Of a stretch of DNA of 13,867 nt, positions 1 through 13,867 are shown piece by piece; the stretch's first letter is position 1; the number at the start of each line of letters is the position of its first letter. A model generated the notes under the pieces. That model did no database searches. It saw only the letters and a program-made list of their open reading frames with translations, and was not told the origin of the DNA. The position numbers and the translations under genes are program-made. The stretch is from IMG/VR virus record IMGVR_UViG_2713896778_000031. One strand, given 5' to 3'. This stretch comes from a virus (Duplodnaviria; Heunggongvirae; Uroviricota; Caudoviricetes).

Positions 1-279
1 TAGTCATCCTGTTTACCTCTTTCTCAGGGAGTTTAGTCTCCAGGATTTCCGGGGCGGTTCAGTTTGCGAAAGAATGGGGCTGCGTTAATTAATTTTGTGG
101 ATGGTCGAGTGACAGACGGATTTATCTTGCGCGAAGGTGAGTTTGTCACTTCATTACAGGCACTGAAAGAGATCGGAATAAAAGCAGGCTTTTCAGCTTT
201 TGCAGAAGAATAAACTCATCTACAATCTTGCGCGGGGCTGAACTCCCGCTGAGTAACACCGTGCCACCGGAGAAAACCG

Positions 280-558
280 ATGGCACGCAACGTAAAATAT
301 TACAATTCTGATAATTCGCCCGTTCTTGTCTGCACGCACGAGCGGTATTCTCACGCATTCAAGTCTGAATGGTTCCAACACCCTCCATGCACTGAAGAGC
401 AGGCTGAATGGATAATTCAGTGTTACCGCAGGCGCGGATACGAGGTTAAGAAAGCCCTTAGTCTCGACTACCGTCACTGGATAATCTCAGTCAGATTGCC
501 TTACTCCGAACGCCCACCGCGTCCGTCCCGTACATTCCAGCAACGCATCTGGAGGTAA
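280..558 (+). CDS. Hypothetical small prophage protein (92 aa), immediately upstream of the DUF968 gene
   Basis: ATG ORF with GGAG about 9 nt upstream; stop TAA at 556-558 sits 1 nt before the GTG start of the next gene (operon-like packing). No recognisable motif; function not inferred. Confidence 0.45.
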   Translation: MARNVKYYNSDNSPVLVCTHERYSHAFKSEWFQHPPCTEEQAEWIIQCYRRRGYEVKKALSLDYRHWIISVRLPYSERPPRPSRTFQQRIWR

Positions 559-559
559 C

Positions 560-1553
560 GTGCGGGTATTACTTCGACCTGTTCTGGTACCGGAACTCGG
601 GCTGGTGGTCGTTAAGCCGGGCCGTGAATCCATGCCGGTATTCCACAATACCCGGGTACTGGTGGAGCCGGAACCGAAAAGCATGCGTAATCTGCCGTCC
701 GGGGTCGTTCCTGCCGTTCGCCAGCCGCTGGTGGAAGACAAAACATTGCTGCCGTTTTTCAGTAACGCACGGGTAATTCGTGCTGCTGGTGGTGCTGGTG
801 CATTGTCTGACTGGCTGTTGCGCCATATTAAATCCTGCCAGTGGCCACACGGCGATTATCATCACAGCGAAACCGTTATTCACCGATATGGTACCGGCGC
901 AATGGTGTTGTGCTGGCACTGCGACAACCAGCTGCGTGACCAGACATCNNNNNNNNNNNNNNNNNNNNNNNNNNNNNNNNNNNNNNNNNNNNNNNNNNTT
1001 ATCCTGGTGGGCGGTCCGCAATCAGGTGGCGGACGCGCTACCGGAAGCGGTATTACGTCGCTCGCTGGGATTACCAGCGGAAAAAAACTGCTCGGTGTAC
1101 CGCGAAAGCGACATCGTACCGGGAGAGCAGACCGCCACCAGCATATTGAAACAGCGCACAAAAAATCTTGCACCGTTGCCTCACGCCCACCAGCAACAAA
1201 ACCCATCACAGGAAAAGACGGTGGTAAGCATCACCGTTGATCCAGAGTCTCCGGAATCTTTCATGAAGCTGCCTAAACGTCACCGTTGGGTTAAGGAGAA
1301 ATACACACGCTGGGTTAAGACACAGCCGTGTGCTTGCTGCGGTATGCCAGCCGACGATCCGCATCATCTGATTGGTCACGGGCAGGGCGGAATGGGAACC
1401 AAAGCACATGATCTCTTTGTGTTGCCTTTGTGCAGAAAGCATCACGACGAGCTGCATGCGAATACCGTGGCATTTGAAGAGAAGTATGGCTCCCAGCTGG
1501 AGCTGATATTTCGTTTTATCGATCGTGCGCTGGCAATAGGCGTACTGGCGTAA
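560..1553 (+). CDS. DUF968-family prophage protein (YdfU-like), interrupted by an N-run; reading frame differs on the two sides of the gap
   Basis: GTG start at 560 preceded by GGAGG. The C-terminal part (999-1553) carries a Cys/His cluster (CACCG...HH...H...C...HH...H) that I recall as typical of DUF968 proteins found upstream of Q in Qin-like prophages. The protein-like frame is frame 2 before the N-run and frame 0 after it. Confidence 0.55.
949..998. other. Run of 50 N (masked bases or assembly gap) inside the DUF968 gene
   Basis: Directly visible in the sequence; the flanking coding frames are not compatible with an exactly 50-nt in-frame segment. Confidence 0.95.
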
Positions 1554-1566
1554 GTGGAGAACGAGC

Positions 1567-2301
1567 ATGAACCTTGAAGCTTTACCAAAATATTACTCCC
1601 CAAAATCTCCAAAATTGAGTGATGACGCACCGGCGACAGGCTCGGGTGGTTTAACAATAACAGATGTGATGGCTGCGCAGGGGATGGTGCAGTCGAAAGC
1701 TCCGCTTGGTTTTGCCTTATTCCTGGCAAAAGTTGGTGTTCAGGATCCTCAGTTTGCGATTGAAGGTCTGCTCAATTANNNNNNNNNNNNNNNNNNNNNN
1801 NNNNNNNNNNNNNNNNNNNNNNNNNNNNACCTTGTGAATTTTGCCTTTGCTGATTATTCCAGGTCTGCGGCAAGTAAGGCTCGCTGTGAGTATTGTGCTG
1901 GTACTGGATTTCATAATGTATTGCGCGAAGTGGTGAAACACTCCAGAAGTGGGGAATCTGTTATCAAGGAAGAGTGGGTGAAGGAACTATGTCAGCATTG
2001 CCATGGTAAGGGAGAAGTCAGCACAGCGTGCAGAGGGTGTAAGGGGAAAGGTATTGTCCTGGATGAAAAAAGAACCCGGCTTCATAGCACGCCTGTTTAT
2101 AAGGTTTGTGGGCGTTGCAATGGAAACCGGTTTAGTCGTTTATCAACGACACTGGCGCGGTGTCATGTCCAGAAGCTGGTACCAGACCTGACGGATTATC
2201 AGTGGTACAAAGGATATGCAGATGTCATTGATAAACTGGTTACAAAGTGCTGGCAGGAAGAAGCATATGCTGAGGTGCAATTAAGAAAAGTGACGAGATA
2301 A
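1567..2301 (+). CDS. Late-gene antiterminator Q (phage 82/21-type, QuuQ-like), 244 aa with an internal N-run
   Basis: Position between the DUF968 gene and the lysis cassette; several CxxC pairs (CEYCAGTG, CQHCHGKG, CRGCKGKG, CGRCNG) consistent with a zinc-binding Q protein; size matches Qin QuuQ (about 250 aa). Frame is preserved across the N-run. Confidence 0.7.
   Translation: MNLEALPKYYSPKSPKLSDDAPATGSGGLTITDVMAAQGMVQSKAPLGFALFLAKVGVQDPQFAIEGLLNXXXXXXXXXXXXXXXXXXLVNFAFADYSRSAASKARCEYCAGTGFHNVLREVVKHSRSGESVIKEEWVKELCQHCHGKGEVSTACRGCKGKGIVLDEKRTRLHSTPVYKVCGRCNGNRFSRLSTTLARCHVQKLVPDLTDYQWYKGYADVIDKLVTKCWQEEAYAEVQLRKVTR
1779..1828. other. Run of 50 N (masked bases or assembly gap) inside the Q gene
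   Basis: Directly visible; the coding frame continues unchanged across it. Confidence 0.95.
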
Positions 2302-2440
2302 ATGATTTTCACCGAACGATGGCGACATAACGATTGTATTTTCTAAGGAAACGTGCAAAGAGTTTTCCAATGATGAGCCTTATATGCATACCTGTGGAAA
2401 ATATCAATAAGCCGCGCAGAGTGGTTTTTTTGTGGACATA
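2302..2440 (+). promoter_or_regulatory. Putative late-promoter/qut-like region immediately downstream of Q
   Basis: Lambdoid phages place the late promoter and Q-utilisation site directly after Q (established). A homologous copy of this segment recurs at about 3996-4131 ending in a clean terminator. The exact -35/-10 elements could not be assigned. Confidence 0.3.
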
Positions 2441-2551
2441 AACTTTGTGCAGAACGGTAACCATTATGGTTGCCGTGAATGCAGTTTTTTTACATTGCTG
2501 GCTTTTTTAGATTTGTGTTAGTTATTGATATTAACAAGAAGGGGAAAAGAC

Positions 2552-2653
2552 ATGCTAAAACGGCAGGATATGAAGGAAACGGTTATGCGTGAATGTTCCA
2601 GTGTGATTAACCATATCATCTGGAGAAGCCATCCTGATGCAGGGAAGAGGTAA
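2552..2653 (+). CDS. Small ORF (33 aa), candidate small protein
   Basis: ATG preceded by AAGGGGAAAAG; no recognisable motif; too short to support by composition. Confidence 0.2.
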   Translation: MLKRQDMKETVMRECSSVINHIIWRSHPDAGKR

Positions 2654-3062
2654 CAGTAACGCGCATCAATCAGGCTGCAAATAAATGGCTTACGCCGGAA
2701 ATCTGGCTATCGATGTATTACCGGTTTGTTACCCATGAAGAAAATTAAGGTGATAACGAAACTGATTTTATAGGTGTCTTGTCAGAGTGTTGCGATGAAA
2801 CTTGTGTTGGCAGTGCAGGGAAAACAGTAGGATGAAAATTATAAATTGCTTTAAATGAGCTTGATTTTCCTCATGTTATGAGATATTTGTCTTATATTGC
2901 TGGTTAATTATGAAAGTTTTTGTAAATCTACAGCAATAAAATCCATATTAATTAAAGCACTAGATGCGTTTCTGATTTGTGCATGAAACATACATATCAT
3001 AATGATTAATTGCATCTATAATTACAGATACAGCATTGTGCTGTTAAAAAACTGGAGTCCCC

Positions 3063-3170
3063 ATGAATACATTATATGTAAGTGATTCAAATGAAAAATC
3101 TCATGACAGGAATAAAAACAATGAGGATAGTAAGGGTAAGGATAATAAAAAAGACAACCGGAAAGAGTAA
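3063..3170 (+). CDS. Small ORF (35 aa) encoding a very hydrophilic K/N/D-rich peptide
   Basis: GGAG 5 nt upstream of the ATG; lies in an AT-rich segment; a strong + strand terminator follows at 3377-3405. Overlaps an antisense ORF, so coding status is uncertain. Confidence 0.25.
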   Translation: MNTLYVSDSNEKSHDRNKNNEDSKGKDNKKDNRKE

Positions 3171-3205
3171 ATAATCTTTCCTGCATAAAAATACTAGGGT
3201 GGAAT

Positions 3206-3325
3206 ATGTCAGAACATCCAGATTTTGATGACCGTAAGCCTGATGATGAGCCCGTTGAGCGTCCTGATGAGGGGCAACCATTGAACCCTTTTTCACCGGA
3301 TGATAAAAGAGATCCTATTATTTAG
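3206..3325 (+). CDS. Small ORF (39 aa) encoding an acidic, proline-rich peptide (MSEHPDFDDRKPDDEPVERPDEGQPLNPFSPDDKRDPII)
   Basis: GGGTGG upstream of the ATG; a + strand intrinsic terminator about 50 nt downstream; tandem with the previous small ORF. Confidence 0.3.
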   Translation: MSEHPDFDDRKPDDEPVERPDEGQPLNPFSPDDKRDPII

Positions 3326-3376
3326 ATATAGCAGAATATAGCCGTTTAAAGTAGGTTGTGTTTTGTTGCTATCCTT

Positions 3377-3405
3377 AAACCACCTCCACAGGAGGTGGTT
3401 TTTTA
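3377..3405 (+). terminator. Rho-independent terminator
   Basis: 11-bp perfect stem (AAACCACCTCC / GGAGGTGGTTT) with a 3-nt loop, followed by a T-run. Confidence 0.7.
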
Positions 3406-3461
3406 CTAATGGAACATTAATTGGCAGATGTGATTGTGTACGACTTATGGGAGGCTTAAGA

Positions 3462-3647
3462 TTATTTTCTGCCAATAATAAAACCAAGCGTTAACCCTAT
3501 GCTTAGAGCAACCACCACGCTAGTCAGTGGATAATTTCTAAATTTATCTTTAACGTTTTCTTTGCCTCCCTGCAAAGCATCGTCAGCACATGATGCATAT
3601 TTTTTGACAGTATTAACTATTTCGTTTTCAGATTGATTTGAAGTCAT
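3462..3647 (-). CDS. Small membrane-anchored protein (61 aa) with a DUF883 (ElaB/YqjD)-like C-terminal anchor
   Basis: ATG at 3647 with AGGAC 7 nt upstream; the longer 94-aa form in the ORF track starts at a TTG. The C-terminus NYPLTSVVVALSIGLTLGFIIGRK matches the pattern I recall for ElaB/YqjD tail anchors (hydrophobic helix ending in basic residues). Confidence 0.4.
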   Translation of the reverse strand: MTSNQSENEIVNTVKKYASCADDALQGGKENVKDKFRNYPLTSVVVALSIGLTLGFIIGRK

Positions 3648-3831
3648 GTTTGAAGTCCTGATGTTAAGTGGCTTTTTAATTATAGCAGATATGCTTTCAA
3701 TGATAGGGCGGAGAGTTGTTATTGAGGTGATACTATGACCACTCAATCAACATTACATAAAATGACGTTTACTCCTGTTTGGCACAGTAGCAGAATTTTG
3801 CTTCTGCTACTGAAGTCGCTTTAGCACTAGA

Positions 3832-3995
3832 ATATGCAGATGGATAAAGCAGTTCAGCGTATGTACTGCGTCATGCATATCGGTCTTGCAGATATGACGA
3901 GAAGGGGAGACAAGGTGTGTGTAATGTAGAAGTCTTTAAAGTGCTGTCTGGGATAACTCTATGCTGAAGTGCAATTGATAAAAGTAACACGATAA
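3832..3995 (+). pseudogene. Diverged remnant of a second Q-gene 3-prime end
   Basis: Nucleotide similarity to the end of the intact Q gene (ATATGCAGATG..., AAAGTGCTG..., ATGCTGAAGTGCAATTGATAAAAGTAACACGATAA versus ATGCTGAGGTGCAATTAAGAAAAGTGACGAGATAA). Translates to ...YAEVQLIKVTR-stop, matching the Q C-terminus YAEVQLRKVTR, but has an in-frame stop just upstream. Confidence 0.5.
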
Positions 3996-4101
3996 AGGTT
4001 TTTCAATGAAGATGGTAACGTGATGCTTGCATTTTTCAAAAAAATATGGATAAAGTTTTTTCAACGATGGGCTTTGTATACCCGACGTTAAGAAAAAGTA
4101 G

Positions 4102-4131
4102 AAAACCCGCTGATGAGCGGGTTTTGTGCTT
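4102..4131. terminator. Rho-independent terminator (tR-prime-like), possibly bidirectional
   Basis: 9-bp stem AAAACCCGC / GCGGGTTTT with loop TGATGA, followed by TTTTGTGCTTT; an A-run on the other side gives a T-run on the minus strand. Sits about 110 nt after the Q-remnant stop, where lambdoid tR-prime would be expected. Confidence 0.6.
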
Positions 4132-4417
4132 TAAATGGGGCAATGGTAATGTTGAATCTCATCCCGGGACTCATGTCTGTTAACTTATTATTTAGCTGGT
4201 GACTTGGTTATTTGCCTGATGTTTAAAATGTTTTCTTCCAGTACAATGTCCCTAAACACAATGAGTCTGCTTATTATATTATTAGCAGAGCTATTACGGC
4301 CAAAGTACAGCATAAGCTTTTAAAGCCAATCAACCAGTCATCAAGACAGACGGGGTTATTCATAAAAACTCTCCATGTGTGATCCGATGGGGCCTGAAAT
4401 TAAAGCTTTAATATAGC

Positions 4418-4630
4418 TCATGAAAGGTAAACATTGGCAGCTGAAGGGCCACGCAGACCATTTATCCGGCAAAATTCCACGCGTAATCCGGTGGTAATTT
4501 CTTCTGCATCGCGGAGATTGAGCGCTGAAACATGAAGCTGGACATCGATACGACCATCGGATGGGGTGATAAGACCCTTGCCGCTTTTGCCGTCAAAGGT
4601 TTTGACAATTCCTGTCATTTTACGGGACAA
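4418..4630 (-). CDS. cspF: Cold-shock-domain protein, CspF/CspH-type (70 aa)
   Basis: [13 protein letters not shown]...[16 protein letters not shown] is a CspA-family fold with the TFD variant typical of CspF/CspH; divergent from cspB as in the Qin prophage. Confidence 0.8.
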
Positions 4631-4884
4631 AAAAATTCCTTAACACTGATAACTTGGCGCACTATACACACGTTCCTGAAGAAAGCTATAGTGTTTTGAT
4701 GGGGTTGAAGATGGCTGGATGTCTAAAATAAACATTGCTTCATATGTTCAACTATGCGTTAATGATTGCGTCGGTTTGAAGAACAGACGATATACGAAGT
4801 AGTTTACTAAAGCAGTTCTCATTTCAGGTGTTATTCACTTATTCCTTCTTTGAGTCTCTCCAATTAAGTACGAAGTCGTTTCTG

Positions 4885-4930
4885 TTATGCAAACCATTTA
4901 TGCCGAAAGGCTCAAGTTAAGGAATGTAGA
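4885..4930 (+). promoter_or_regulatory. Conserved csp-type 5-prime UTR element upstream of cspB
   Basis: GCCGAAAGGCTCAAGTTAAGGAATGTAGA directly before the ATG closely resembles the conserved cspA-family leader/RBS region as I recall it. Confidence 0.5.
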
Positions 4931-5146
4931 ATGTCAAATAAAATGACTGGTTTAGTAAAATGGTTTAACGCTGATAAAGGTTTCGGCTTTATTTCTCCTG
5001 TTGATGGTAGTAAAGATGTGTTTGTGCATTTTTCTGCGATTCAGAATGATAATTATCGAACCTTATTTGAAGGTCAAAAGGTTACCTTCTCTATAGAGAG
5101 TGGTGCTAAAGGTCCTGCAGCAGTAAATGTCATCATTACTGATTAA
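4931..5146 (+). CDS. cspB: Cold shock protein CspB-type (71 aa)
   Basis: [21 protein letters not shown]...VFVHFSAIQ carries the RNP1/RNP2 motifs of CspA-family proteins; paired divergently with cspF and located beside the lysis cassette as in Qin. Confidence 0.8.
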
Positions 5147-5257
5147 AATTCATCGCTCGTCTGTATACGATAACGAAGAAGGCTGATGCCTGAGTAGAGA
5201 TACGGACAGAGTAGTGAATATTGGATCTCTTTAATAAAAAGTAAGGAGGTCCAATAC

Positions 5258-5293
5258 ATGAAACAATGGCCAGCATATTTGGCAAAATCTTAA
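5258..5293 (+). CDS. Tiny ORF (11 aa, MKQWPAYLAKS) with a near-perfect Shine-Dalgarno sequence
   Basis: TAAGGAGGT followed by a 7-nt spacer and ATG; could equally be a leader peptide or a truncated gene start. Very short, so low confidence. Confidence 0.2.
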   Translation: MKQWPAYLAKS

Positions 5294-5427
5294 TCAGGAA
5301 AAGTATGCTAACCATTGGGGTGAAGTGCAGGTTTGCTGCATGAATAGTTTCACAACAGAAGCTAACTGCTGGCATCGCAAAACAAAGTGCGTAAGTGGAT
5401 GACTCCCACAAAAAGCACCACAATCTC

Positions 5428-5451
5428 AAACCCGCTCAGGCGGGTTTTTTA
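5428..5451 (+). terminator. Rho-independent terminator
   Basis: 8-bp stem AAACCCGC / GCGGGTTT with loop TCAG, followed by TTTTTT. Confidence 0.7.
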
Positions 5452-5509
5452 TTATCTGCTTTAAATATATTATTAAAATATAAAAAATACTTGTTACTAA
5501 TAAAATCAA

Positions 5510-5680
5510 TCAGGCTACAGCTTTAAGATTTGTCTGGAATACTTTGTTGCAATGAGGGCAGATCAAAAGGGCACCTTTTTGTACTCTTGAAAAACTGTGT
5601 TCTGACTCTTGGGTGCAGTTTGGGCAGGAACATTTAACGAGATAATTACGGCGTGATTTTGAGTCTTTACGTTCTGACAT
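5510..5680 (-). CDS. Small zinc-ribbon protein (56 aa; CxCPxC ... CPHC), possibly YnfU-type
   Basis: ATG at 5680 with AGGA 7 nt upstream (the 73-aa track ORF uses an upstream alternative start). Two Cys pairs about 20 residues apart. The link to Qin YnfU is from memory of size and context only. Confidence 0.45.
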   Translation of the reverse strand: MSERKDSKSRRNYLVKCSCPNCTQESEHSFSRVQKGALLICPHCNKVFQTNLKAVA

Positions 5681-5899
5681 AGGCTTTTCCTGTATAAATG
5701 GCCGTATACAGTACACTAAATATGAAAACATTTCTCGTATTATTATTTTATATATGACTTTCTTTCAAAATAATTACCCACATTTTTAATGTGTATGTTT
5801 TTTTAGCGCCGTTGAGAACAACGTGTGCTGTCAAAACTACCCCGTAGACTCCGATCTTTTCAAACATATTGCACCATCCGTGTACATCGGGGTGAGGAT

Positions 5900-6115
5900 A
5901 TGAAATCAATGGATAAGTTAACAACAGGTGTTGCCTATGGCACATCGGCGGGTAATGCTGGTTTCTGGGCATTGCCGTTACTCGATAAAGTAACTCCGTC
6001 ACAGTGGGCTGCAATCGGTGTGCTGGGTAGCCTGGTTTTTGGCCTGCTGACGTATCTGACAAATCTTTATTTCAAGATTAAAGAAGACAGGCGTAAGGCT
6101 GCGAGAGGAGAGTAA
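5900..6115 (+). CDS. Class II holin/pinholin of the phage 21 S type (EssQ-like), with the dual start MKSM
   Basis: [23 protein letters not shown]...[38 protein letters not shown] closely matches the S21 holin as I recall it: two transmembrane segments, charged C-terminus, two in-frame starts (5900 and 5909). The upstream 5825 start in the track is unlikely. Confidence 0.8.
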
Positions 6116-6119
6116 TCCA

Positions 6120-6308
6120 ATGACTCAAGACTATGAACTGGTTGTGAAAGGAGTCCGTAATTTTGAGAATAAAGTTACGGTAACTGTAGCCTTACAGGAC
6201 AAAGAACGCTTTGACGGTGAAATTTTTGACCTGGATGTCGCCATGGACCGTGTTGAAGGAGCTGCGCTGGAGTTTTATGAGGCAGCAGCCAGAAGGAGCG
6301 TCCGGTAA
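6120..6308 (+). CDS. Small protein between holin and endolysin (62 aa, YdfR-like by position)
   Basis: Tightly packed between the holin stop (6115) and the endolysin, at the position YdfR occupies in Qin; no motif recognised. Confidence 0.45.
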   Translation: MTQDYELVVKGVRNFENKVTVTVALQDKERFDGEIFDLDVAMDRVEGAALEFYEAAARRSVR

Positions 6309-6427
6309 GTCTTCCTGGAAGTAGCAGAAAAATTGTCAGAAAAAGTTGAGTCTTATCTGCAGCATCAGTACTCCTTTAAGATTGAAAATCCTGCCAATAA
6401 GCACGAGCGTCCTCATCATAAATATCT

Positions 6428-7455
<1,028 letters not shown>

Positions 7456-7816
7456 GGTAATATTAAATCGGAACATTTACATCGCGGAATGTAAAATTTA
7501 AATAAAAAGGACTCTTCCATGAGCCAAAATTCCTGAAATCTTAAGGGTAAGAAAAGGTCTTAATCAGAATGACACGTTTTATTAATAAATAAAGCTATTC
7601 TTTCATTGCTGTGTTTTTCTTTACAAAAGTAATCCTTGCTATGGGTGGTTAATCATGCGTTAATGGTGTTCTGGTTTGTTACAAATTTATCTGAAGCAGT
7701 CATTGTTATAATTTTATTATTTGTACCTCTTGGGATTTCCTTGTTGGTTTTTCTCTCTGATATTTTTTTTTCGGACCATTCTGCCCAAGGGCTAATTTCT
7801 TCAAAAGGTAATAATT

Positions 7817-8029
7817 ATGTCTAACAAAATGACTGGTTTAGTGAAATGGTTTAACCCTGAAAAAGGTTTTGGTTTCATCACGCCGAAAGATGGCAGCAAA
7901 GATGTGTTTGTCCATTTCTCAGCAATTCAGAGCAACGATTTCAAAACATTAACTGAGAATCAGGAAGTTGAATTTGGTATTGAGAACGGACCTAAAGGTC
8001 CTGCCGCTGTTCATGTAGTGGCGCTTTGA
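7817..8029 (+). CDS. cspI: Cold shock protein CspI-type (70 aa)
   Basis: [38 protein letters not shown]...; third CspA-family paralogue, located downstream of the lysis cassette as in Qin. Confidence 0.8.
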
Positions 8030-8057
8030 GGTAGACAATATTACAAACCATATTCAC

Positions 8058-8228
8058 TTTAGATGCCCGTGTTGTCATGGTTCCCAGTATAGAACATCAT
8101 CTTTTGATGTTTCTGACATGAATCCTTTCGGGGCAAAATGTATCTTTTGTAAATCAATGATGATTACATTTGATAATATTTCACAATACTTAAATGCCAG
8201 CCGTCTGTCGTTGGATTTAAAAAAGTGA
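8058..8228 (+). pseudogene. Small zinc-ribbon ORF (FRCPCCHG ... CIFCKS) lacking a canonical start codon upstream of the first Cys pair
   Basis: Frame is open from 8019 to the TGA at 8226-8228 and encodes two Cys pairs about 20 residues apart, but the only in-frame ATG (8118) lies after the first pair. No terminator separates it from cspI; a strong terminator follows it. Confidence 0.3.
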
Positions 8229-8233
8229 AAATG

Positions 8234-8258
8234 AAGGCTCCTTCGGGAGCTTTTTTGC
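8234..8258 (+). terminator. Rho-independent terminator
   Basis: Stem AAGGCTCC / GGAGCTTT around a TTCG tetraloop, followed by a T-run. Confidence 0.7.
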
Positions 8259-8300
8259 TTGGTGTCTATTCGATGGATACTCACATACTACGGTAACATC

Positions 8301-8531
8301 ATGAAAAAAATCATAGTTTTTTTTAACTCTGAACCAGCAGTGGTAGTGCCAGCGATGACTGGAGTTAACACCATCATGCGTGAATATCCAAATGGCGAAA
8401 AAACACACCTTACTGTAATGGCCGCAGGGTTTCCATCTCTGACCGGAGATCATAAAGTCATTTATGTAGCCGCGGATCGACATGTTACTTCAGAAGAAAT
8501 TCTGGAAGCAGCAATAAGGCTCTTGAGTTGA
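8301..8531 (+). CDS. Hypothetical prophage accessory protein (76 aa)
   Basis: ATG at 8301 (MKKIIVFF...); the track start at 8259 is a TTG inside the preceding terminator. No motif recognised. Confidence 0.4.
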   Translation: MKKIIVFFNSEPAVVVPAMTGVNTIMREYPNGEKTHLTVMAAGFPSLTGDHKVIYVAADRHVTSEEILEAAIRLLS

Positions 8532-8699
8532 TTTGATGCTATTGCATTGATAATTCAGGAAAATTCTCTTTGTCTGTTTGTGTAAAATTTAGACTATCGT
8601 ATGTTGATTATTGCGATGTTTCATCTTATCTTTTACACGTTTGCACCATATAATCGACTTACTGTGTAACTGGAAAGTCATAACAGACTAAAAGAGGAA

Positions 8700-8876
8700 A
8701 TGATGAATATTGAAGACTTAAAAACAAAAACAGAAGCAGATATTTCTGAATATATAACAAAAAAAATTATTGAACTTAAGAAAAAGACCGGGAAAGAAGT
8801 TACCAGTATTCAGTTTACCGCACGGGAAAAAATGACGGGTCTTGAAAGCTATGATGTCAAGATTAATTTAATCTGA
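8700..8876 (+). CDS. gnsB: GnsB-type small protein (58 aa; GnsA/GnsB family)
   Basis: Not in the ORF track (under 60 aa). MMNIEDLKTKTEADISEYITKKIIELKKKTGKEVTSIQFTAREKMTGLESYDVKINLI matches the GnsA/GnsB family as I recall it; AAGAGGAAA RBS; terminator at 8903-8928. Confidence 0.75.
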   Translation: MMNIEDLKTKTEADISEYITKKIIELKKKTGKEVTSIQFTAREKMTGLESYDVKINLI

Positions 8877-8902
8877 TGTATTCAATAATAAAATTTATCC
8901 AT

Positions 8903-8928
8903 AAACCCCGTTTTTACGGGGTTTTGTT
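8903..8928. terminator. Rho-independent terminator between convergent gnsB and ydfO
   Basis: Stem AAACCCCG / CGGGGTTT with loop TTTTTA, followed by TTTTGTT. Confidence 0.65.
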
Positions 8929-9027
8929 ATATTTGAATGGTTCCGAATATCTAAATCACAATTGTTGATGGTTTTTATTAAACCAATGCAGTCCGGCTCA
9001 GGAGTGAGAGAAGCCGGACGTTATGGT

Positions 9028-9438
9028 TTAGCGTGGTAAGATCTGTGTAGTTTTCTGGATGCTTTCAGTAAATAGTAATGAGTTATCAAAGGCATAGTAA
9101 TATCTTTGGTGTTCCTGGATATTTGTAACCCATCGGAAAACTCCTGCTTTAGCAAGATTTTCCCTGTATTGTTGAAATGTGATTTCTTTTGATTTCAACT
9201 TATTATAGGAGGTCTCTATAAGATGTTTGTTTCTGGAGAATTTAACATTTACAACCTTTTTGAGTCCTTTTACTAACACTATGTTGTCGTTTTCTAACAC
9301 AATGTGAATATTATCTGTGGCTAAATAGTAAATATAAAGTGAGACATTGTGACGTTTTAGCTCAGAATAAAATAATTCACAGTTTAAATCTTTACGCACT
9401 TGATCGAATATTTCTTTAAAAATGGCAGCCTGAGCCAT
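9028..9438 (-). CDS. ydfO: DUF1398-family prophage protein (YdfO-like), about 136 aa
   Basis: Sequence and context match Qin YdfO as I recall it. The start at the second ATG (9438, [11 protein letters not shown]...) has GAAGG 7 nt upstream; the track start at 9453 lacks an RBS. Confidence 0.65.
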
Positions 9439-9738
9439 TGGTAAACCTTCCATGTGATACGATGGCGCGTAGTTTGCATTATCGTGTTTATTGTTTCAAT
9501 CTGGTCTGACCTCTTTGTGTTTTGTTGATGATTTATGTCAAATATTAAGCCTGTTTTTAATGAATAGTGTTGATTGCGTAACAAAGTTGAGCCTTGCTGG
9601 CATCCAGGAGGGATATGCAACCGACAGATGTATGTAAGGTCGATGTACTCAAACTTTCATACTTTTCCTCTTTTATGCAGAAAGATTTGAAGTAATATTT
9701 TAACCGCTAGATGACGAGCAAACGCATGGAGCGACAAA

Positions 9739-9945
9739 ATGAATAAAGAACAATCTGCTGATGAACTCTCGTTGGATCTGATTCGTGTAAAAAATATGCT
9801 TAATAGCACCATTTCTATGAGTTACCCGGATGTTGTAATTGCATGTATAGAACATCAGGTGTCTCTGGAAGCATTCAGGGCAATTGAGGCAGCGTTGGTG
9901 AAGCACGATAAGAATTCGAAGGATTATTCCCTGGTGGTTGACTGA
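9739..9945 (+). CDS. Hypothetical small protein (68 aa)
   Basis: GGAG 7 nt upstream of the ATG; the overlapping antisense ORF 9700-9906 lacks comparable signals. No motif recognised. Confidence 0.4.
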
Positions 9946-9965
9946 GCACCATAACTGCTAATCAT

Positions 9966-10133
9966 TCAAACTATTTCACCTGTGACAGAGTCAATATCGC
10001 ATTCTGTCACTGTCAGGCTAATACAGAGCTGCAATTCAACTACTGCAATGTCCTCGTAATTAGGTGAATTTACAATATCGTCCTGTTCGGATGCCGGCTG
10101 CATTGCTGAAGATGAGGCATTTATGGTTCGCAT
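9966..10133 (-). CDS. Hypothetical small acidic ORF (55 aa), not in the ORF track
   Basis: ATG at 10133 with GAGGGG upstream; translated by hand (MRTINASSSAMQPASEQDDIVNSPNYEDIAVVELQLCISLTVTECDIDSVTGEIV). Weak support. Confidence 0.2.
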   Translation of the reverse strand: MRTINASSSAMQPASEQDDIVNSPNYEDIAVVELQLCISLTVTECDIDSVTGEIV

Positions 10134-10310
10134 ATTTTCCCCTCATGCTCGTCAGTCCTGTGCGTAGGAAGAAACAGGACACTCACACTAATTTGTGTGG
10201 GCATGCTGTGATGTCCTTCTGAATTATTCCTATGCCATTATGTAAAGCGCTGTATCAGATGCTCGTCACGGCTGTCAGGCTGTCGGGTCCTCCCGGTGGG
10301 GGCCCCTGCC

Positions 10311-10330
10311 ACGGGGCGGGAGCGTCGCGG
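10311..10330. other. cosN-like cohesive-end site upstream of the small terminase gene
   Basis: ACGGGGCGGGAGCGTCGCGG resembles lambda cosN (ACG / GGGCGGCGACCT / CGCGGG as I recall it): identical flanks and 8 of 12 positions in the overhang region. It lies about 180 nt upstream of the Nu1-like gene, with a GGGGCCCC palindrome just before it. Confidence 0.4.
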
Positions 10331-10509
10331 AAAAAGGCTAGTTTTTGCATTTCCATGGCGGCGGCAGCATGTTTGGTAATTTATTGATAATTAAAAGTTA
10401 TTTCTCTTTTTACCTGTACAATATTTTTTTCCCCCTGTCATTAGACCAGTTTACAATTAATTGAAATATATAAATAAACATGATTTTCACCTGCCAGATG
10501 GAGTTGCTT

Positions 10510-11037
10510 ATGTCAAATGTGAGCGGGATCGGTGATGCTTATTACTGGAGTGTTTTTAAAATCGCTGAGGCCTTTGGGCTTCACCGGGACACAGTAAAAA
10601 AACGGCTTCTCGCGGCCAACACTCCTGTGGCTGCGACTGTCAGGGGGAACCCCGTTTACGCCCTGCAGCATGTCGGGCCAGCCCTGTTTAGTGTGAAGCA
10701 TGAGGCAGCAGACTCTGTTCATGATCCATCCCGTATGGAGCCGAAAGAGAGAAAGGACTGGTACCAGTCTGAAAATGAAAGGATCAAGCTGGAAAAGGAG
10801 CAGCGAAAACTCATCCCCGTTGATGAAGTAGTCATCGTCTATTCGTCCATGAGAAAGGCTGTCGTCCAGGTTCTGGAGACAATTCCGGATGTTCTTGAAC
10901 GCGATTGCGCCCTGACTCCTCAGGCCGTCGGCGTTGTACAGCAGGCAATTGATGACCTGCGATACACTCTTCAGGAAAAATCCTACGAGGCTTGTGCTGC
11001 TGAATTAATTCCTGATGAGGAAGGAGAGAGTCTCTAG
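10510..11037 (+). CDS. Terminase small subunit, Nu1-like (NohA/NohQ-type)
   Basis: Immediately precedes the large-subunit gene and follows the cos-like site; similar in size to lambda Nu1 (181 aa) with an N-terminal helix-turn-helix-like segment; GGAG 6 nt upstream of the ATG at 10510. Confidence 0.6.
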   Translation: MSNVSGIGDAYYWSVFKIAEAFGLHRDTVKKRLLAANTPVAATVRGNPVYALQHVGPALFSVKHEAADSVHDPSRMEPKERKDWYQSENERIKLEKEQRKLIPVDEVVIVYSSMRKAVVQVLETIPDVLERDCALTPQAVGVVQQAIDDLRYTLQEKSYEACAAELIPDEEGESL

Positions 11038-11045
11038 GAGGAATA

Positions 11046-12083
11046 ATGGGTTTTTCATCAGCCCGAAATTTGGGAAGGGACATATCGGCAGGATTTTCCC
11101 CACCACGTCGCATGCCGATTTCGGAGGCTGTTAAAAAATTCATGCGTGTTCCCAAGGGGGCTGGTAACTCGGTGCCATGGGATCCTGAACTGACACCCTA
11201 CATCATTGAGCCCATGAACTGCCTGGCATCGCGTGAATACGATGCGGTGATTTTTGTTGGTCCTGCGCGAACAGGGAAGACCATTGGTCTGATCGATGGA
11301 TGGATTGTCTATACCATCGTTTGCGATCCTTCGGACATGCTCGTTGTGCAGATGACCGAAGATAAGGCCCGCGAGCATTCTAAAAAGCGCCTCGACAGAA
11401 CGTTCAGAAGCAGTGCGGCGGTAAAGAAAAGAATGAGTCCACGTCGTAACGACAATAATGTCCATGATAAGACGTTCAGGGATGGCTCGTTCCTTAAAAT
11501 TGGTTGGCCCTCGGTCAACATTATGTCGTCGTCGGATTACCGGTTTGTCGCCTTAACCGATTACGACCGTTTTCCGGAGAATATCGACAGCGAGGGTGAT
11601 GGTTTCTCCCTGGCCTCAAAACGTACCACCACATTTATGTCCGCCGGGATGACTCTGGTGGAGAGCTCGCCGGGACGTGACATCTGCGACAGCAAATGGC
11701 GACGTAAGTCGCCTCATGAAGCGCCACCGACGACTGGTATTCTTTCCCTTTACAATCGTGGTGACCGCCGCCGCTGGTACTGGTCATGTCCGCACTGCGG
11801 TGAATATTTTCAGCCAGCCATGGATGCCATGACCGGCTACCGTAATGAACCGGATCCCTTTAAAGCCAGTGAGGCGGCGTATCTACTTTGCCCGCACTGC
11901 AGCGGCATTATCACTGCGGAGAAAAAGCGTGAGCTCAATAGTGCAGGAGTCTGGTTGCGTGAAGGTCAGGTCATTGATCGTAACGGCAACGTTTCCGGTG
12001 AACCGCGCCGCTCCCGTATCGCCAGTTTCTTGGATGTAGGGTACATTTCTTACCTGTTTGTATGTTCTGGTGTCGTTTCATAG
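11046..12083 (+). pseudogene. Terminase large subunit (lambda gpA-like), N-terminal ATPase portion only; truncated at about 12042
   Basis: AGGAGG RBS; Walker A-like VGPARTGKT; CPHCGEYFQ matches lambda gpA CPHCGEEQY; GVWLREG aligns to gpA GIWTRDG. About 330 gpA-like residues are followed by 14 unrelated residues and a stop, against 641 aa for gpA, so the C-terminal nuclease half is missing. Confidence 0.75.
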
Positions 12084-12200
12084 TCTTTTCAATGAGTTGT
12101 GATTTTATGAGTTTCCTCTCTTTGCTTGATAATGAGTTAGTTTATCGCTTGTTATTGGCTTGAATGGACTACATGACGGACTAAAAAATGAGGGCGATAG

Positions 12201-13439
12201 ATGTCGGTAAAGCCATTAACCGTGACTGAAGTTAAGGGGATGAAACCACGTGAAAAGGACTATGCCGTTTATGATGGGTTCGGTTTATTGCTGAATGTGA
12301 GTAAAGCCGGTGGGAAAGTGTGGCGTTTCCGTTATAGCCATCCGATAACGAAGAAACGGCAGACATACACGATAGGACGTTTTCCTGAATTCTCACTCGC
12401 GGAAGCACGGGAAGTACGTGATGAACTTCGGCGAATGATTGCACGTGGAGTTGATCCAGTGACGGAGAAGAAAAATCGTAAAATTGAGATGTCACTAAAA
12501 AATCTACAGACATTTGAAGCTGTTGCTAATGCATGGTTCGCTTTTAAAAAGGGATCTGAATTGCGGAAACCTACGCTGTATAATATCGAATATGAAGTAT
12601 ACAAATATCTTGTTCCTTTCTTTGGTAAGTACAGTATAGAAAAAATTACAGCACCAGTAGCTATTAATGCTCTGGATGCCGTATCCGATAAGAATGCGTT
12701 GCAAAAAAAATTAATATCAAGATTAAATGAAATTATGAATTATGCTGTAAATTGTGGAGCATTGAAAGCAAATCCATTACTTAAGATAAAGACTGCATTC
12801 ACAGGAAAGAAAAATAAATCATTAGCAGCACTACCTGTTGAAAGATTGCCTGAATTTCTGAGCTGGTGGGATAGTGTGCCTCATACCTATCAAATAGCTC
12901 ATAATGCACTTTTATTCCAGATATTGACAATGGTCAGGCCAGGTGAGGCGATTAAAGCAGAGTGGTCAGAGATTGATTTTGATTCTGGCTTGTGGATTAT
13001 CCCCGCGCATAAAATGAAATGCCATCGTGAACATGTTGTTCCCTTGTCATCACAGGCTATTAGTATCCTCAGAACAATGCAGGAAATAAAAAGAGGGCGT
13101 TATGTGTTTTTTTCCTCCAGAACAAAAGATGCGCCTATGGGGAGGAATACTATCAAGACCCCAATTGCTGCCAGTAAGTTCAAAGGGATTGTAACGTTAC
13201 ATGGTTTTCGTTCAATGTGGAGTACGCTTTTAAATGAGGAGGGATTTAACCCCGATGTAATCGAGGCTGCATTGGCGCATAAAAGTGGTGATAAAATAAG
13301 AGATATTTATAATAGAACTATTTATCTAGAACAGCGTAAGATCATGATGCAATGGGTCGGTGATTTTTTTGATGATGCGAGAAAAGGGGTAATTAATAGA
13401 TCCGGTGGTATGAAAGGTTTAAGAGTAGTAAATGGTTGA
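12201..13439 (+). CDS. Tyrosine recombinase, P4-type integrase (412 aa)
   Basis: N-terminal DUF4102-like arm domain (LTVTEVKGMKPREKDYAVYDGFGLLLNV...WRFRY) and a C-terminal catalytic region with HGFRS, LAH and a tyrosine near the end (IYNRTIY), typical of P4-family integrases; GAGGG RBS. Confidence 0.9.
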   Translation: MSVKPLTVTEVKGMKPREKDYAVYDGFGLLLNVSKAGGKVWRFRYSHPITKKRQTYTIGRFPEFSLAEAREVRDELRRMIARGVDPVTEKKNRKIEMSLKNLQTFEAVANAWFAFKKGSELRKPTLYNIEYEVYKYLVPFFGKYSIEKITAPVAINALDAVSDKNALQKKLISRLNEIMNYAVNCGALKANPLLKIKTAFTGKKNKSLAALPVERLPEFLSWWDSVPHTYQIAHNALLFQILTMVRPGEAIKAEWSEIDFDSGLWIIPAHKMKCHREHVVPLSSQAISILRTMQEIKRGRYVFFSSRTKDAPMGRNTIKTPIAASKFKGIVTLHGFRSMWSTLLNEEGFNPDVIEAALAHKSGDKIRDIYNRTIYLEQRKIMMQWVGDFFDDARKGVINRSGGMKGLRVVNG

Positions 13440-13452
13440 GGAGGTTCAGCAA

Positions 13453-13656
13453 ATGAATACCAATGAAGATATTTTATTTACTAAAGACGTAATGAAAATC
13501 TTGCGATATGGAGCAATGAGTGCATTCATCAATTTCTGGAAAGATGAGAATAATGGTTTTCCTCAGCCGTTCAGAATTGGACGACGACATACCTGGCACC
13601 GTAGAGATGTAGAAGCATGGTTAGATAAACAACGAGAACAGGCCAATCCCCACTAA
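13453..13656 (+). CDS. AlpA-family transcriptional regulator/excisionase-like protein (67 aa)
   Basis: GGAGG 8 nt upstream of the ATG at 13453; small HTH protein ending in the AlpA-like motif ...HRRDVEAWL; sits directly downstream of the integrase. Confidence 0.7.
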   Translation: MNTNEDILFTKDVMKILRYGAMSAFINFWKDENNGFPQPFRIGRRHTWHRRDVEAWLDKQREQANPH

Positions 13657-13669
13657 TAATATCTTTCAT

Positions 13670-13696
13670 ACCCCGCGTGCAATGCGGGGTTTTTTG
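13670..13696 (+). terminator. Rho-independent terminator after the AlpA-like gene
   Basis: Stem ACCCCGC / GCGGGGT with a 7-nt loop, followed by TTTTTT. Confidence 0.65.
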
Positions 13697-13715
13697 TATG
13701 TGAGGTAAAAAAGAA

Positions 13716-13867
13716 ATGAATAAAAATATTGCCGTGACGGGCAAGGGTGACGCACGTCATGTAAAAAAATTCTGTGATTTTCGTGATCTGGTCGTTCTGC
13801 GCTTTGATAGTGTGAACGTTCGCGTGGTGTATCTGAACGGCGATCCGTGGTTTGTTGCAAAGGATGT
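13716..13867 (+). CDS. Bro-N domain protein (antirepressor-like), N-terminal part; runs off the window end
   Basis: GAGGT RBS; MNKNIAVTGKGDARHVKKFCDFRDLVVLRFDSVNVRVVYLNGDPWFVAKDV carries the Bro-N signature (R-V...-G-x-PWFVAKDV). Confidence 0.55.
   Translation, partial: MNKNIAVTGKGDARHVKKFCDFRDLVVLRFDSVNVRVVYLNGDPWFVAKD

Follow-up and report, generated by a model that had tools for sequence, protein, structure and literature searches.

Directly downstream of the cold-shock gene cspI, in a 13,867-nucleotide (nt) stretch of a Caudoviricetes virus record (IMG/VR record IMGVR_UViG_2713896778_000031; the whole stretch is referred to as the window), lies a reading frame with two cysteine pairs and no ordinary start codon, and the question that it raises is where, and whether, its translation begins. 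The frame is open from position 8019, after a TAG at 8016-8018, and ends at a TGA at 8226-8228 (translation of 8016-8231). In the list of open reading frames (ORFs) it contains no ATG, GTG or TTG between 8019 and 8064, where the first Cys codon stands; its first canonical start is an ATG at 8118, 3' of the first Cys pair (CPCC). An earlier sequence-only reading of the window had correctly noted the missing start, as well as the loss of half of the metal site that a start at the first ATG would entail (the CPCC knuckle is deleted), and had left three explanations side by side: a recent pseudogene, a protein begun at a rare codon such as ATT, or a frame fed by recoding. The motifs that it had read, FRCPCCHG and CIFCKS about 20 residues apart, are present, with exactly 21 residues between CPCC and CIFC, and the first Cys codon stands 45 nt into the open frame, not 40 nt as had been given. 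The favoured explanation, which we consider highly probable, is that the frame is the known gene ynfQ, started at ATT, linked to a csp gene and encoding a metal-knuckle protein.

The frame was identified by comparison with annotated genomes and family models. In NC_000913.3, ynfQ (b4724) is placed at 1638256..1638444, which corresponds to 8040-8228 of the window (plus strand), so the annotated start codon is the ATT at 8040-8042. In the MG1655 assembly annotated by the Prokaryotic Genome Annotation Pipeline (PGAP), coding sequence (CDS) WP_071524604.1, of 62 amino acids (aa), maps to the same positions, and this CDS, named 'cold shock small protein YmcF', was present in every RefSeq E. coli genome inspected. 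Pfam family PF23641 (YmcF-like) matched YnfQ with 109.9 bits (cutoff 27, E=6.9e-32), residues 1-62 aligning to model positions 1-62. Membership of the YmcF-like family was assigned on this full-length hidden Markov model match, a conserved core of two Cys pairs in a protein of ~62 aa, and identity with K-12 ynfQ b4724, the ynfQ segment of the window being identical to that of K-12. An NCBIfam search with YnfQ returned a single match, ECs_2282_CxxC, at 17.8 bits and below its cutoff of 37. The 37-aa 'ynfQ' of VanOrsdel et al. 2018 (PMC6001520) was rejected as the same gene; it is a different one, now called ynfT. Of 5426 complete E. coli genomes, 2145 carried the locus in a megablast search with 7780-8320 (2132 of them at 95-100% identity), with cspI, ymcF/ynfQ, ynfR and ynfN in this order under the match. 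The feature is thus an already known gene of a named Pfam family, which the sequence-only reading had not recognised; it is not new to the catalogue, and its entry is unchanged by what amounts to the rediscovery of an annotated gene.

That the CDS starts at ATT 8040 is well supported by comparison of homologous loci, which the sequence-only reading had proposed as a way of finding an intact start. The comparative set consisted of the best 80 of 277 matching genome loci, with one genome per species, plus 4 more distant loci (84 loci from ~20 genera). Conservation set in at the column of window position 8040, where the A and T are 99% conserved. The start column held ATT at 60 loci, ATC at 4, ATG at 19 and TAC at 1, the last from Enterobacter with ATG as the next codon; AUU/AUC is therefore conserved at this column and interchangeable with AUG. 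Upstream of the Cys pair, many lineages lack any in-frame canonical start. The ATG found in orthologues at the 8040 column fixes the N-terminus of the family there, so that whatever is encoded upstream lies outside the protein, and position 1 of PF23641 falls on the same codon. In the window a Shine-Dalgarno (SD) sequence, GAGG (8028-8031, plus strand), overlaps the cspI stop (TGA+GG) and stands 8 nt before the start codon, which is a functional spacing, with no canonical in-frame alternative, as is required of an AUU-initiated gene. Across 75 unique orthologous loci the AGG core at -11..-9 was 93-99% conserved and the 8-nt spacer (-8..-1) was variable (entropy 1.0-1.9 bits). This core is normally the csp stop codon followed by GG (TAA GG or TGA GG), and the GG directly after the stop means that the SD is built on the stop codon. 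Of the three explanations, the protein begun at a rare codon is thus borne out by the RefSeq start, the Pfam model start, the aligned ATG and the SD.

The protein itself is under constraint. A protein search gave 131 homologue clusters, mostly of 62 aa, from Enterobacteriaceae and Dickeya. The core of the family, IHFRCPxCHGSQYRTS...NPxGAKCIFCK, was near-invariant in two alignments; F7, C9, P10, C12, G14, Q16, R18, C37 and K38 were invariant in both, C34 was kept in at least 90% of sequences in both, and C11 was replaced in some orthologues (the CPRC and CPHC variants of loci L054 and L048). Over the CDS, the first, second and third codon positions had nucleotide entropies of 0.36, 0.22 and 1.21 bits, the third position varying ~3-5 times as much as the other two, a pattern which indicates strong purifying selection on the protein.

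These data bear on where the product begins. A shorter product, started at ATT 8052 or at ATG 8118 (36 aa) with the annotated N-terminus being wrong, is improbable: ATG 8118 is the first canonical start in frame, and no experimental N-terminus was found in the searchable literature, but this ATG is not conserved, the orthologue column holding K, R, Q, S, G or N, and a start there would cost the protein the best-conserved stretch of the family, the invariant F-R-C-P-x-C-H-G-S-Q-Y-R block. The AGG core stands 8 nt before 8040 and 20 nt before 8052, and it is with 8040 that the ATG of the 19 orthologues aligns.

Recoding, in which a +1 shift at CUU UGA G (8024-8030) would carry ribosomes from cspI into the ynfQ frame and give a CspI-YnfQ fusion for which no start is needed, has an even smaller chance of being correct. 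The +1 frameshift motif of prfB is CUU UGA C, which the end of cspI (GCG CTT TGA GGT) resembles, and the ynfQ frame is open across this site from 8019. A natural in-frame fusion ORF, Csp-YmcF, was moreover found in Citrobacter sedlakii (locus L016, ~1270-1700), where csp has lost its stop together with its C-terminal codons and reads on, in frame, into ymcF (QGPRGPHFKVTVMTPHIHFRCPCC), with ATG in the ymcF start column. Against recoding, the SD that prfB requires 3 nt upstream of CUU is absent, so that the cspI end has neither the full prfB-type signal nor its conservation in homologues: the last csp codon and stop vary (CTC TAA, CGC TAA, GTA TAA, CGT TGA), as does the distance from csp stop to ymcF start, which is mostly 10 nt, with 11 nt in Dickeya and, in Kosakonia, a 9-nt distance that sets the csp stop in the ymcF frame. 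With these distances the frame relation differs between loci, so recoding that needs a fixed frame is not conserved, whereas initiation at the ATT column fits every locus. Nor does residue conservation extend upstream of the ATT column, and all 19 loci that begin at ATG on this column are without an intact csp. The frame therefore has no need of being fed by recoding as had been suggested; CTT TGA G at the end of cspI is probably coincidental, though the prophage of the window may make a CspI-YnfQ fusion at a low level.

That the frame is a chance ORF, or a gene that has decayed within a cryptic prophage and lost its start codon, can be discounted almost entirely, for although Qin is a defective prophage and the frame has no canonical start, the ATT-started frame is present in both E. 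coli paralogues and at the 60 ATT loci, and in the viable lambdoid phages Tritos and 2H10; the locus is kept at 95-100% identity in the E. coli genomes counted above, the Cys-containing frame is conserved across all 84 loci, and the family-wide purifying selection seen in the codon-position entropies refutes recent decay.

The choice of start codon was then related to the gene upstream. In the window the cspI CDS (7817-8029, plus strand; 70 aa; RefSeq 'cold shock protein CspI'; also in the ORF list) ends at a TGA at 8027-8029, leaving 10 nt (8030-8039) before the ynfQ start, a gap with no room for a terminator; the sequence-only reading had likewise noted none in between. This gap and the SD overlapping the cspI stop have the geometry of a coupled pair, which recurs, with gaps of 9-11 nt, at 49 loci. 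An intact csp was defined as one of at least 63 aa with cold-shock domain (CSD) motifs, ending 9-11 nt upstream. All 49 loci with an intact csp had ATT or ATC (ATG, 0; other, 0), whereas the 35 loci without one had ATT or ATC at 15, ATG at 19 and another codon at 1 (TAC then ATG); few events underlie this association, and related lineages within it are not independent. The intact-csp group comprised Escherichia (both paralogues), Shigella, Citrobacter, Salmonella, Trabulsiella, Intestinirhabdus, Scandinavium, Kosakonia, Yokenella, Siccibacter, Pluralibacter and Dickeya, together with one Pseudescherichia locus and one locus of an Enterobacter metagenome-assembled genome (MAG).

The ATG loci belonged to Klebsiella/Raoultella, Enterobacter, Leclercia, Kluyvera and Citrobacter sedlakii. 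In Enterobacter, Leclercia and Kluyvera no csp was present on that strand. In Klebsiella/Raoultella (L023, L033, L036, L051-L056, L059, L061 and L081) a decayed csp lies ~300 nt upstream, in pieces in three frames of which just the C-terminal PAVVNVVA is recognisable, and ymcF starts at ATG throughout the clade. A neighbour-joining tree built from the CDS placed the ATG loci in four separate clades within an ATT background.

The most likely arrangement is weak AUU initiation coupled to csp translation. Ribosomes ending at the cspI stop would re-initiate 10 nt downstream on the ynfQ AUU; by an alternative route, 30S subunits could be recruited to the stop-embedded SD and start at the same codon. 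Initiation factor 3 (IF3) discriminates against AUU, which gave ~1-2% of AUG initiation in reporter constructs (bioRxiv 10.1101/063800, PMC5499595). A start that is weak and disfavoured by IF3 would hold YnfQ to a small, fixed fraction of the output of the very abundant Csp mRNA, and the comparison suggests that such a start may be kept because the message that carries the gene is a csp mRNA, translationally coupled and expressed at a very high level. AUU would thus be actively maintained, ATG never taking its place beside an intact upstream csp and having done so in at least four lineages in which csp was lost or broken. On a stronger version, to which we give somewhat less than even credence, the AUU would be a selected, context-dependent control element: AUG would be barred when the gene is csp-coupled (0 of 49), and a switch to AUG would follow loss or breakage of csp, as in at least four independent clades.

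The ligand set of YnfQ is most likely C9, C12, C34 and C37, to judge from the alignments, with a putative first knuckle C9-P-C-C12 encoded at 8064-8075 and a second, C34-I-F-C37, at 8139-8150 (both plus strand). An AlphaFold2 model built from a 32-sequence alignment had a mean predicted local distance difference test score (pLDDT) of 75 and a predicted template modelling score (pTM) of 0.55, with strands at residues 7-8, 17-19, 32-34 and 40-43 and a helix at 44-58; both CxxC knuckles (C9xxC12, C34xxC37) stand at beta-hairpins. The most likely picture of YnfQ is of a protein that coordinates a single metal ion, probably Zn, through knuckles folded as in a zinc ribbon or a rubredoxin, with a C-terminal helix after them. 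An AlphaFold3 model of YnfQ has been described as rubredoxin-like in a 2026 review (PMC13348028), and the gene is listed among the uncharacterised y-ome genes (PMC11551758). A profile search of PDB sequences with YnfQ gave insignificant matches to a Rieske loop (best E=0.04) and to UvrA.

Several observations weigh against parts of the favoured explanation. For the fold, a Foldseek search of the YnfQ model against the PDB gave no significant match (best E=0.83, TM ~0.37), so the zinc-ribbon assignment rests on the motifs and a model of medium confidence; the weak top matches (E>=0.8), among them the TFIIE finger and eL43, were themselves zinc ribbons. The zinc-ribbon label of the sequence-only reading accordingly holds for the motifs and the model topology and lacks a significant structural match. 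For the start codon, mapping of the ynfQ or ymcF N-terminus (Ribo-RET, Onc112 or N-terminal mass spectrometry) was not found in the searchable literature, where a search for start sites or function of ynfQ found expression lists, the y-ome listing and the one AlphaFold3 remark alone. Papers of 2016-2017 name infC and pcnB as the sole users of AUU in E. coli (bioRxiv 10.1101/063800, PMC5499595). AUU mRNAs competed worse at low temperature in vitro (PMC5499595), which argues against the simple idea that AUU favours translation in the cold. For the coupling, RNAalifold found no consensus pair across 24 orthologous initiation regions that would indicate a conserved RNA structure enforcing it, and a local hairpin at 7985-8085 (-30 kcal/mol, z=-2.8), considered as a coupling structure, was dropped on this result.

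The link between AUU and csp also has its exceptions: ATT is kept without an intact csp in Pseudescherichia, Atlantibacter, one Citrobacter copy and Shimwellia. Eight Pseudescherichia-type loci have ATT without csp, and 7 of the 8 carry a mini upstream ORF (uORF) encoding MKKG(Y/H)YYY, the stop of which overlaps the ATT; this uORF might stand in for csp in termination-reinitiation. It lies at -19..+7 relative to ATT, with TAA at +5..+7, in loci L022, L024, L026, L027, L029, L030 and L054, and is missing from L048. In Atlantibacter the codon after the ATT is ATG, and one ATT Citrobacter copy has a 10-codon uORF ending at the usual position of the csp stop. The other ATT loci without an intact csp were one Citrobacter with a frameshifted csp, Shimwellia, and one locus at a contig edge.

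If the control-element reading is true, csp-ymcF would be a natural system that uses a near-cognate start codon to draw a low, fixed output from a cold-shock mRNA that is itself hyper-expressed, possibly also gated by IF3 fidelity or temperature, and ynfQ and ymcF would be two more natural AUU-initiated genes of E. coli beyond infC and pcnB. The contrast between ATT/ATC at every intact-csp locus and ATG solely where csp is lacking could be read as a natural experiment in which start strength is tuned to operon context.

At the level of transcription, ynfQ probably shares the mRNA of cspI. The Rfam cspA thermoregulator (RF01766), a cspA-type cold-shock mRNA element covering the 5' untranslated region (UTR) thermoregulator and the cspI coding region, matched 7670-8056 (plus strand) over model positions 1-428 of 428, with 112 bits (gathering 78) and E=1.4e-29; from this match the transcript likely starts near 7670. 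Induction of cspI, ynfQ and ynfN has been recorded together, at 6.5, 5.9 and 5.8-fold, with SspA dependence of 38, 42 and 51 (PMC11228462). These figures would fit a single transcript that carries both cspI and ynfQ and is made from the cold-shock promoter with its 5' UTR.

Just 3' of the ynfQ stop, a terminator-like hairpin with a UUCG loop followed by T6 lies at 8234-8256 (plus strand). Its stem and loop, AAGGCUCC-UUCG-GGAGCUUU, occupy 8234-8253, with the T-run at 8251-8256, and the 45 nt around it (8222-8266) have a folding energy of -14.9 kcal/mol (z=-2.57). A consensus scan called the hairpin at 8234-8256 on the minus strand only. The gene ynfR (8231-8296, plus strand; 21 aa; RefSeq) starts 2 nt after the ynfQ stop and spans the hairpin; it is cold-shock induced, the level of YnfR carrying a sequential peptide affinity tag (YnfR-SPA) climbing strongly after cold shock (PMC6001520). 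As ynfR runs through the hairpin and ynfN lies beyond it, the expression of both needs read-through. The terminator probably leaks, for ynfR is read across it and ynfN is induced along with cspI and ynfQ. A hairpin with its T-run does therefore close the frame, as the sequence-only reading had it, and is probably a partial terminator in place of the strong one assumed. Csp proteins are known antiterminators, and the hairpin may serve to attenuate transcription and not to end it outright. The start of ynfN (8301-8531, plus strand) varies by annotation: K-12 b1551 has 51 aa (156 nt), which by sequence reading corresponds to an internal ATG at 8376; PGAP and phage 2H10 have a 76-aa ORF from ATG 8301, and one PGAP assembly flags ynfN as frameshifted.

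The window is a Qin-like lambdoid prophage of another E. coli-type genome. Its identity with K-12 was considered and rejected, the alignment to K-12 spanning 3938-9516 alone, at 97.7% identity. Outside 3938-9516 the window is not collinear with K-12 Qin: 1-3937 is 89-94% identical, and 9517-13867 has no match in the K-12 region examined. The arrangement downstream of cspI, which the sequence-only reading had suggested looking for in other prophages, recurs elsewhere, the order cspI-ynfQ being found in E. coli genomes and in the lambdoid phages Tritos and 2H10. In these two phages the ynfQ homologue stands within an intact cassette of lysis genes, cspI, ynfQ, ynfN and gnsB. Homologues at 95-100% protein identity are also present, unannotated, in LR595862.1/NC_049950.1 (2H10), LR597641.1 (mEp460_ev081), PV340562.1 and PV340573.1; among the phage records with a ynfQ homologue, Tritos alone annotates it. 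The gene is presumably unannotated in these records because gene callers reject ATT starts. Ordinary gene callers miss ynfQ, so a conserved, cold-shock-linked Cys4 mini-protein is under-counted. Two of the loci came from MAGs labelled Veillonella parvula (L003) and Mucilaginibacter sp. (L046), whose contigs carry cspI-ynfQ or cspG-ymcF sequence that matches the copies of E. coli. In L003 tblastn matched the YnfQ frame of the window at 100% identity, and the YmcF frame of L046 was identical to that of E. coli L047. Both are likely E. coli contamination of metagenome bins.

Compared with known systems, YnfQ shares with zinc-ribbon and rubredoxin-like proteins (the TFIIE-alpha finger, eL43, rubredoxin) two CxxC knuckles ~21 residues apart at beta-hairpins, and differs from them in its extra C-terminal helix; neither its structure nor its sequence gave a significant match. 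Qin encodes another small Cys4 protein, YnfU (b4776; PF23499/NF038384), which is likewise short (~56 aa), has two Cys pairs and adjoins a csp gene, cspB. YnfU and YnfQ have no detectable homology (hhalign probability 0.15), and ynfU, unlike ynfQ, begins at a normal ATG and is encoded by the other strand; in the window it was found at 5510-5680 (minus strand; 56 aa from MSERKD; NF038384, E=8e-23). It lies in the lysis-gene/csp region, being annotated between cspB and the holin gene in K-12 and in strain 504239, and in Shimwellia blattae (L084) it stands directly beside a ymcF-like gene and a CSD gene. Two unrelated Cys4 mini-proteins, YnfQ and YnfU, thus both accompany csp genes.

The prfB site is matched in its CUU UGA by the end of cspI, past which the +1 frame is open, and differs in that the cspI site is without a stimulatory upstream SD, has G as its next base, and has a motif and frame geometry that are not conserved in orthologues. 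The chromosomal paralogue in E. coli K-12 is ymcF (b4723), which lies downstream of cspG: like ynfQ it encodes 62 aa, belongs to PF23641 (63% identical) and has an annotated ATT start 10 nt after the csp stop, its SD being TAA+GG, and both genes are then followed by a gene of gnsA/gnsB type. The two differ in setting, ymcF lying in the chromosomal cluster cspH-cspG-ymcF-ymcE-gnsA and ynfQ in the neighbourhood of a prophage lysis cassette; the downstream neighbour of ymcF is ymcE, whereas ynfQ has ynfR and ynfN.

A parallel in initiation is infC, the gene for IF3 and the textbook case of an AUU start, which like ynfQ has its AUU a few nt after the preceding stop (thrS UAA GGU AUU) (PMC3592434, PMC5499595). 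Its AUU/AUC is conserved across species and gives weak, IF3-sensitive initiation, infC is described as inducible by cold stress (PMC3592434, PMC5499595), and about half of infC initiation is re-initiation after the thrS stop (PMC3592434). The AUU of infC serves autoregulation by its own product, a feedback that is neither known nor likely for YnfQ, whereas the AUU of ynfQ, unlike that of infC, correlates with the presence of an upstream csp.

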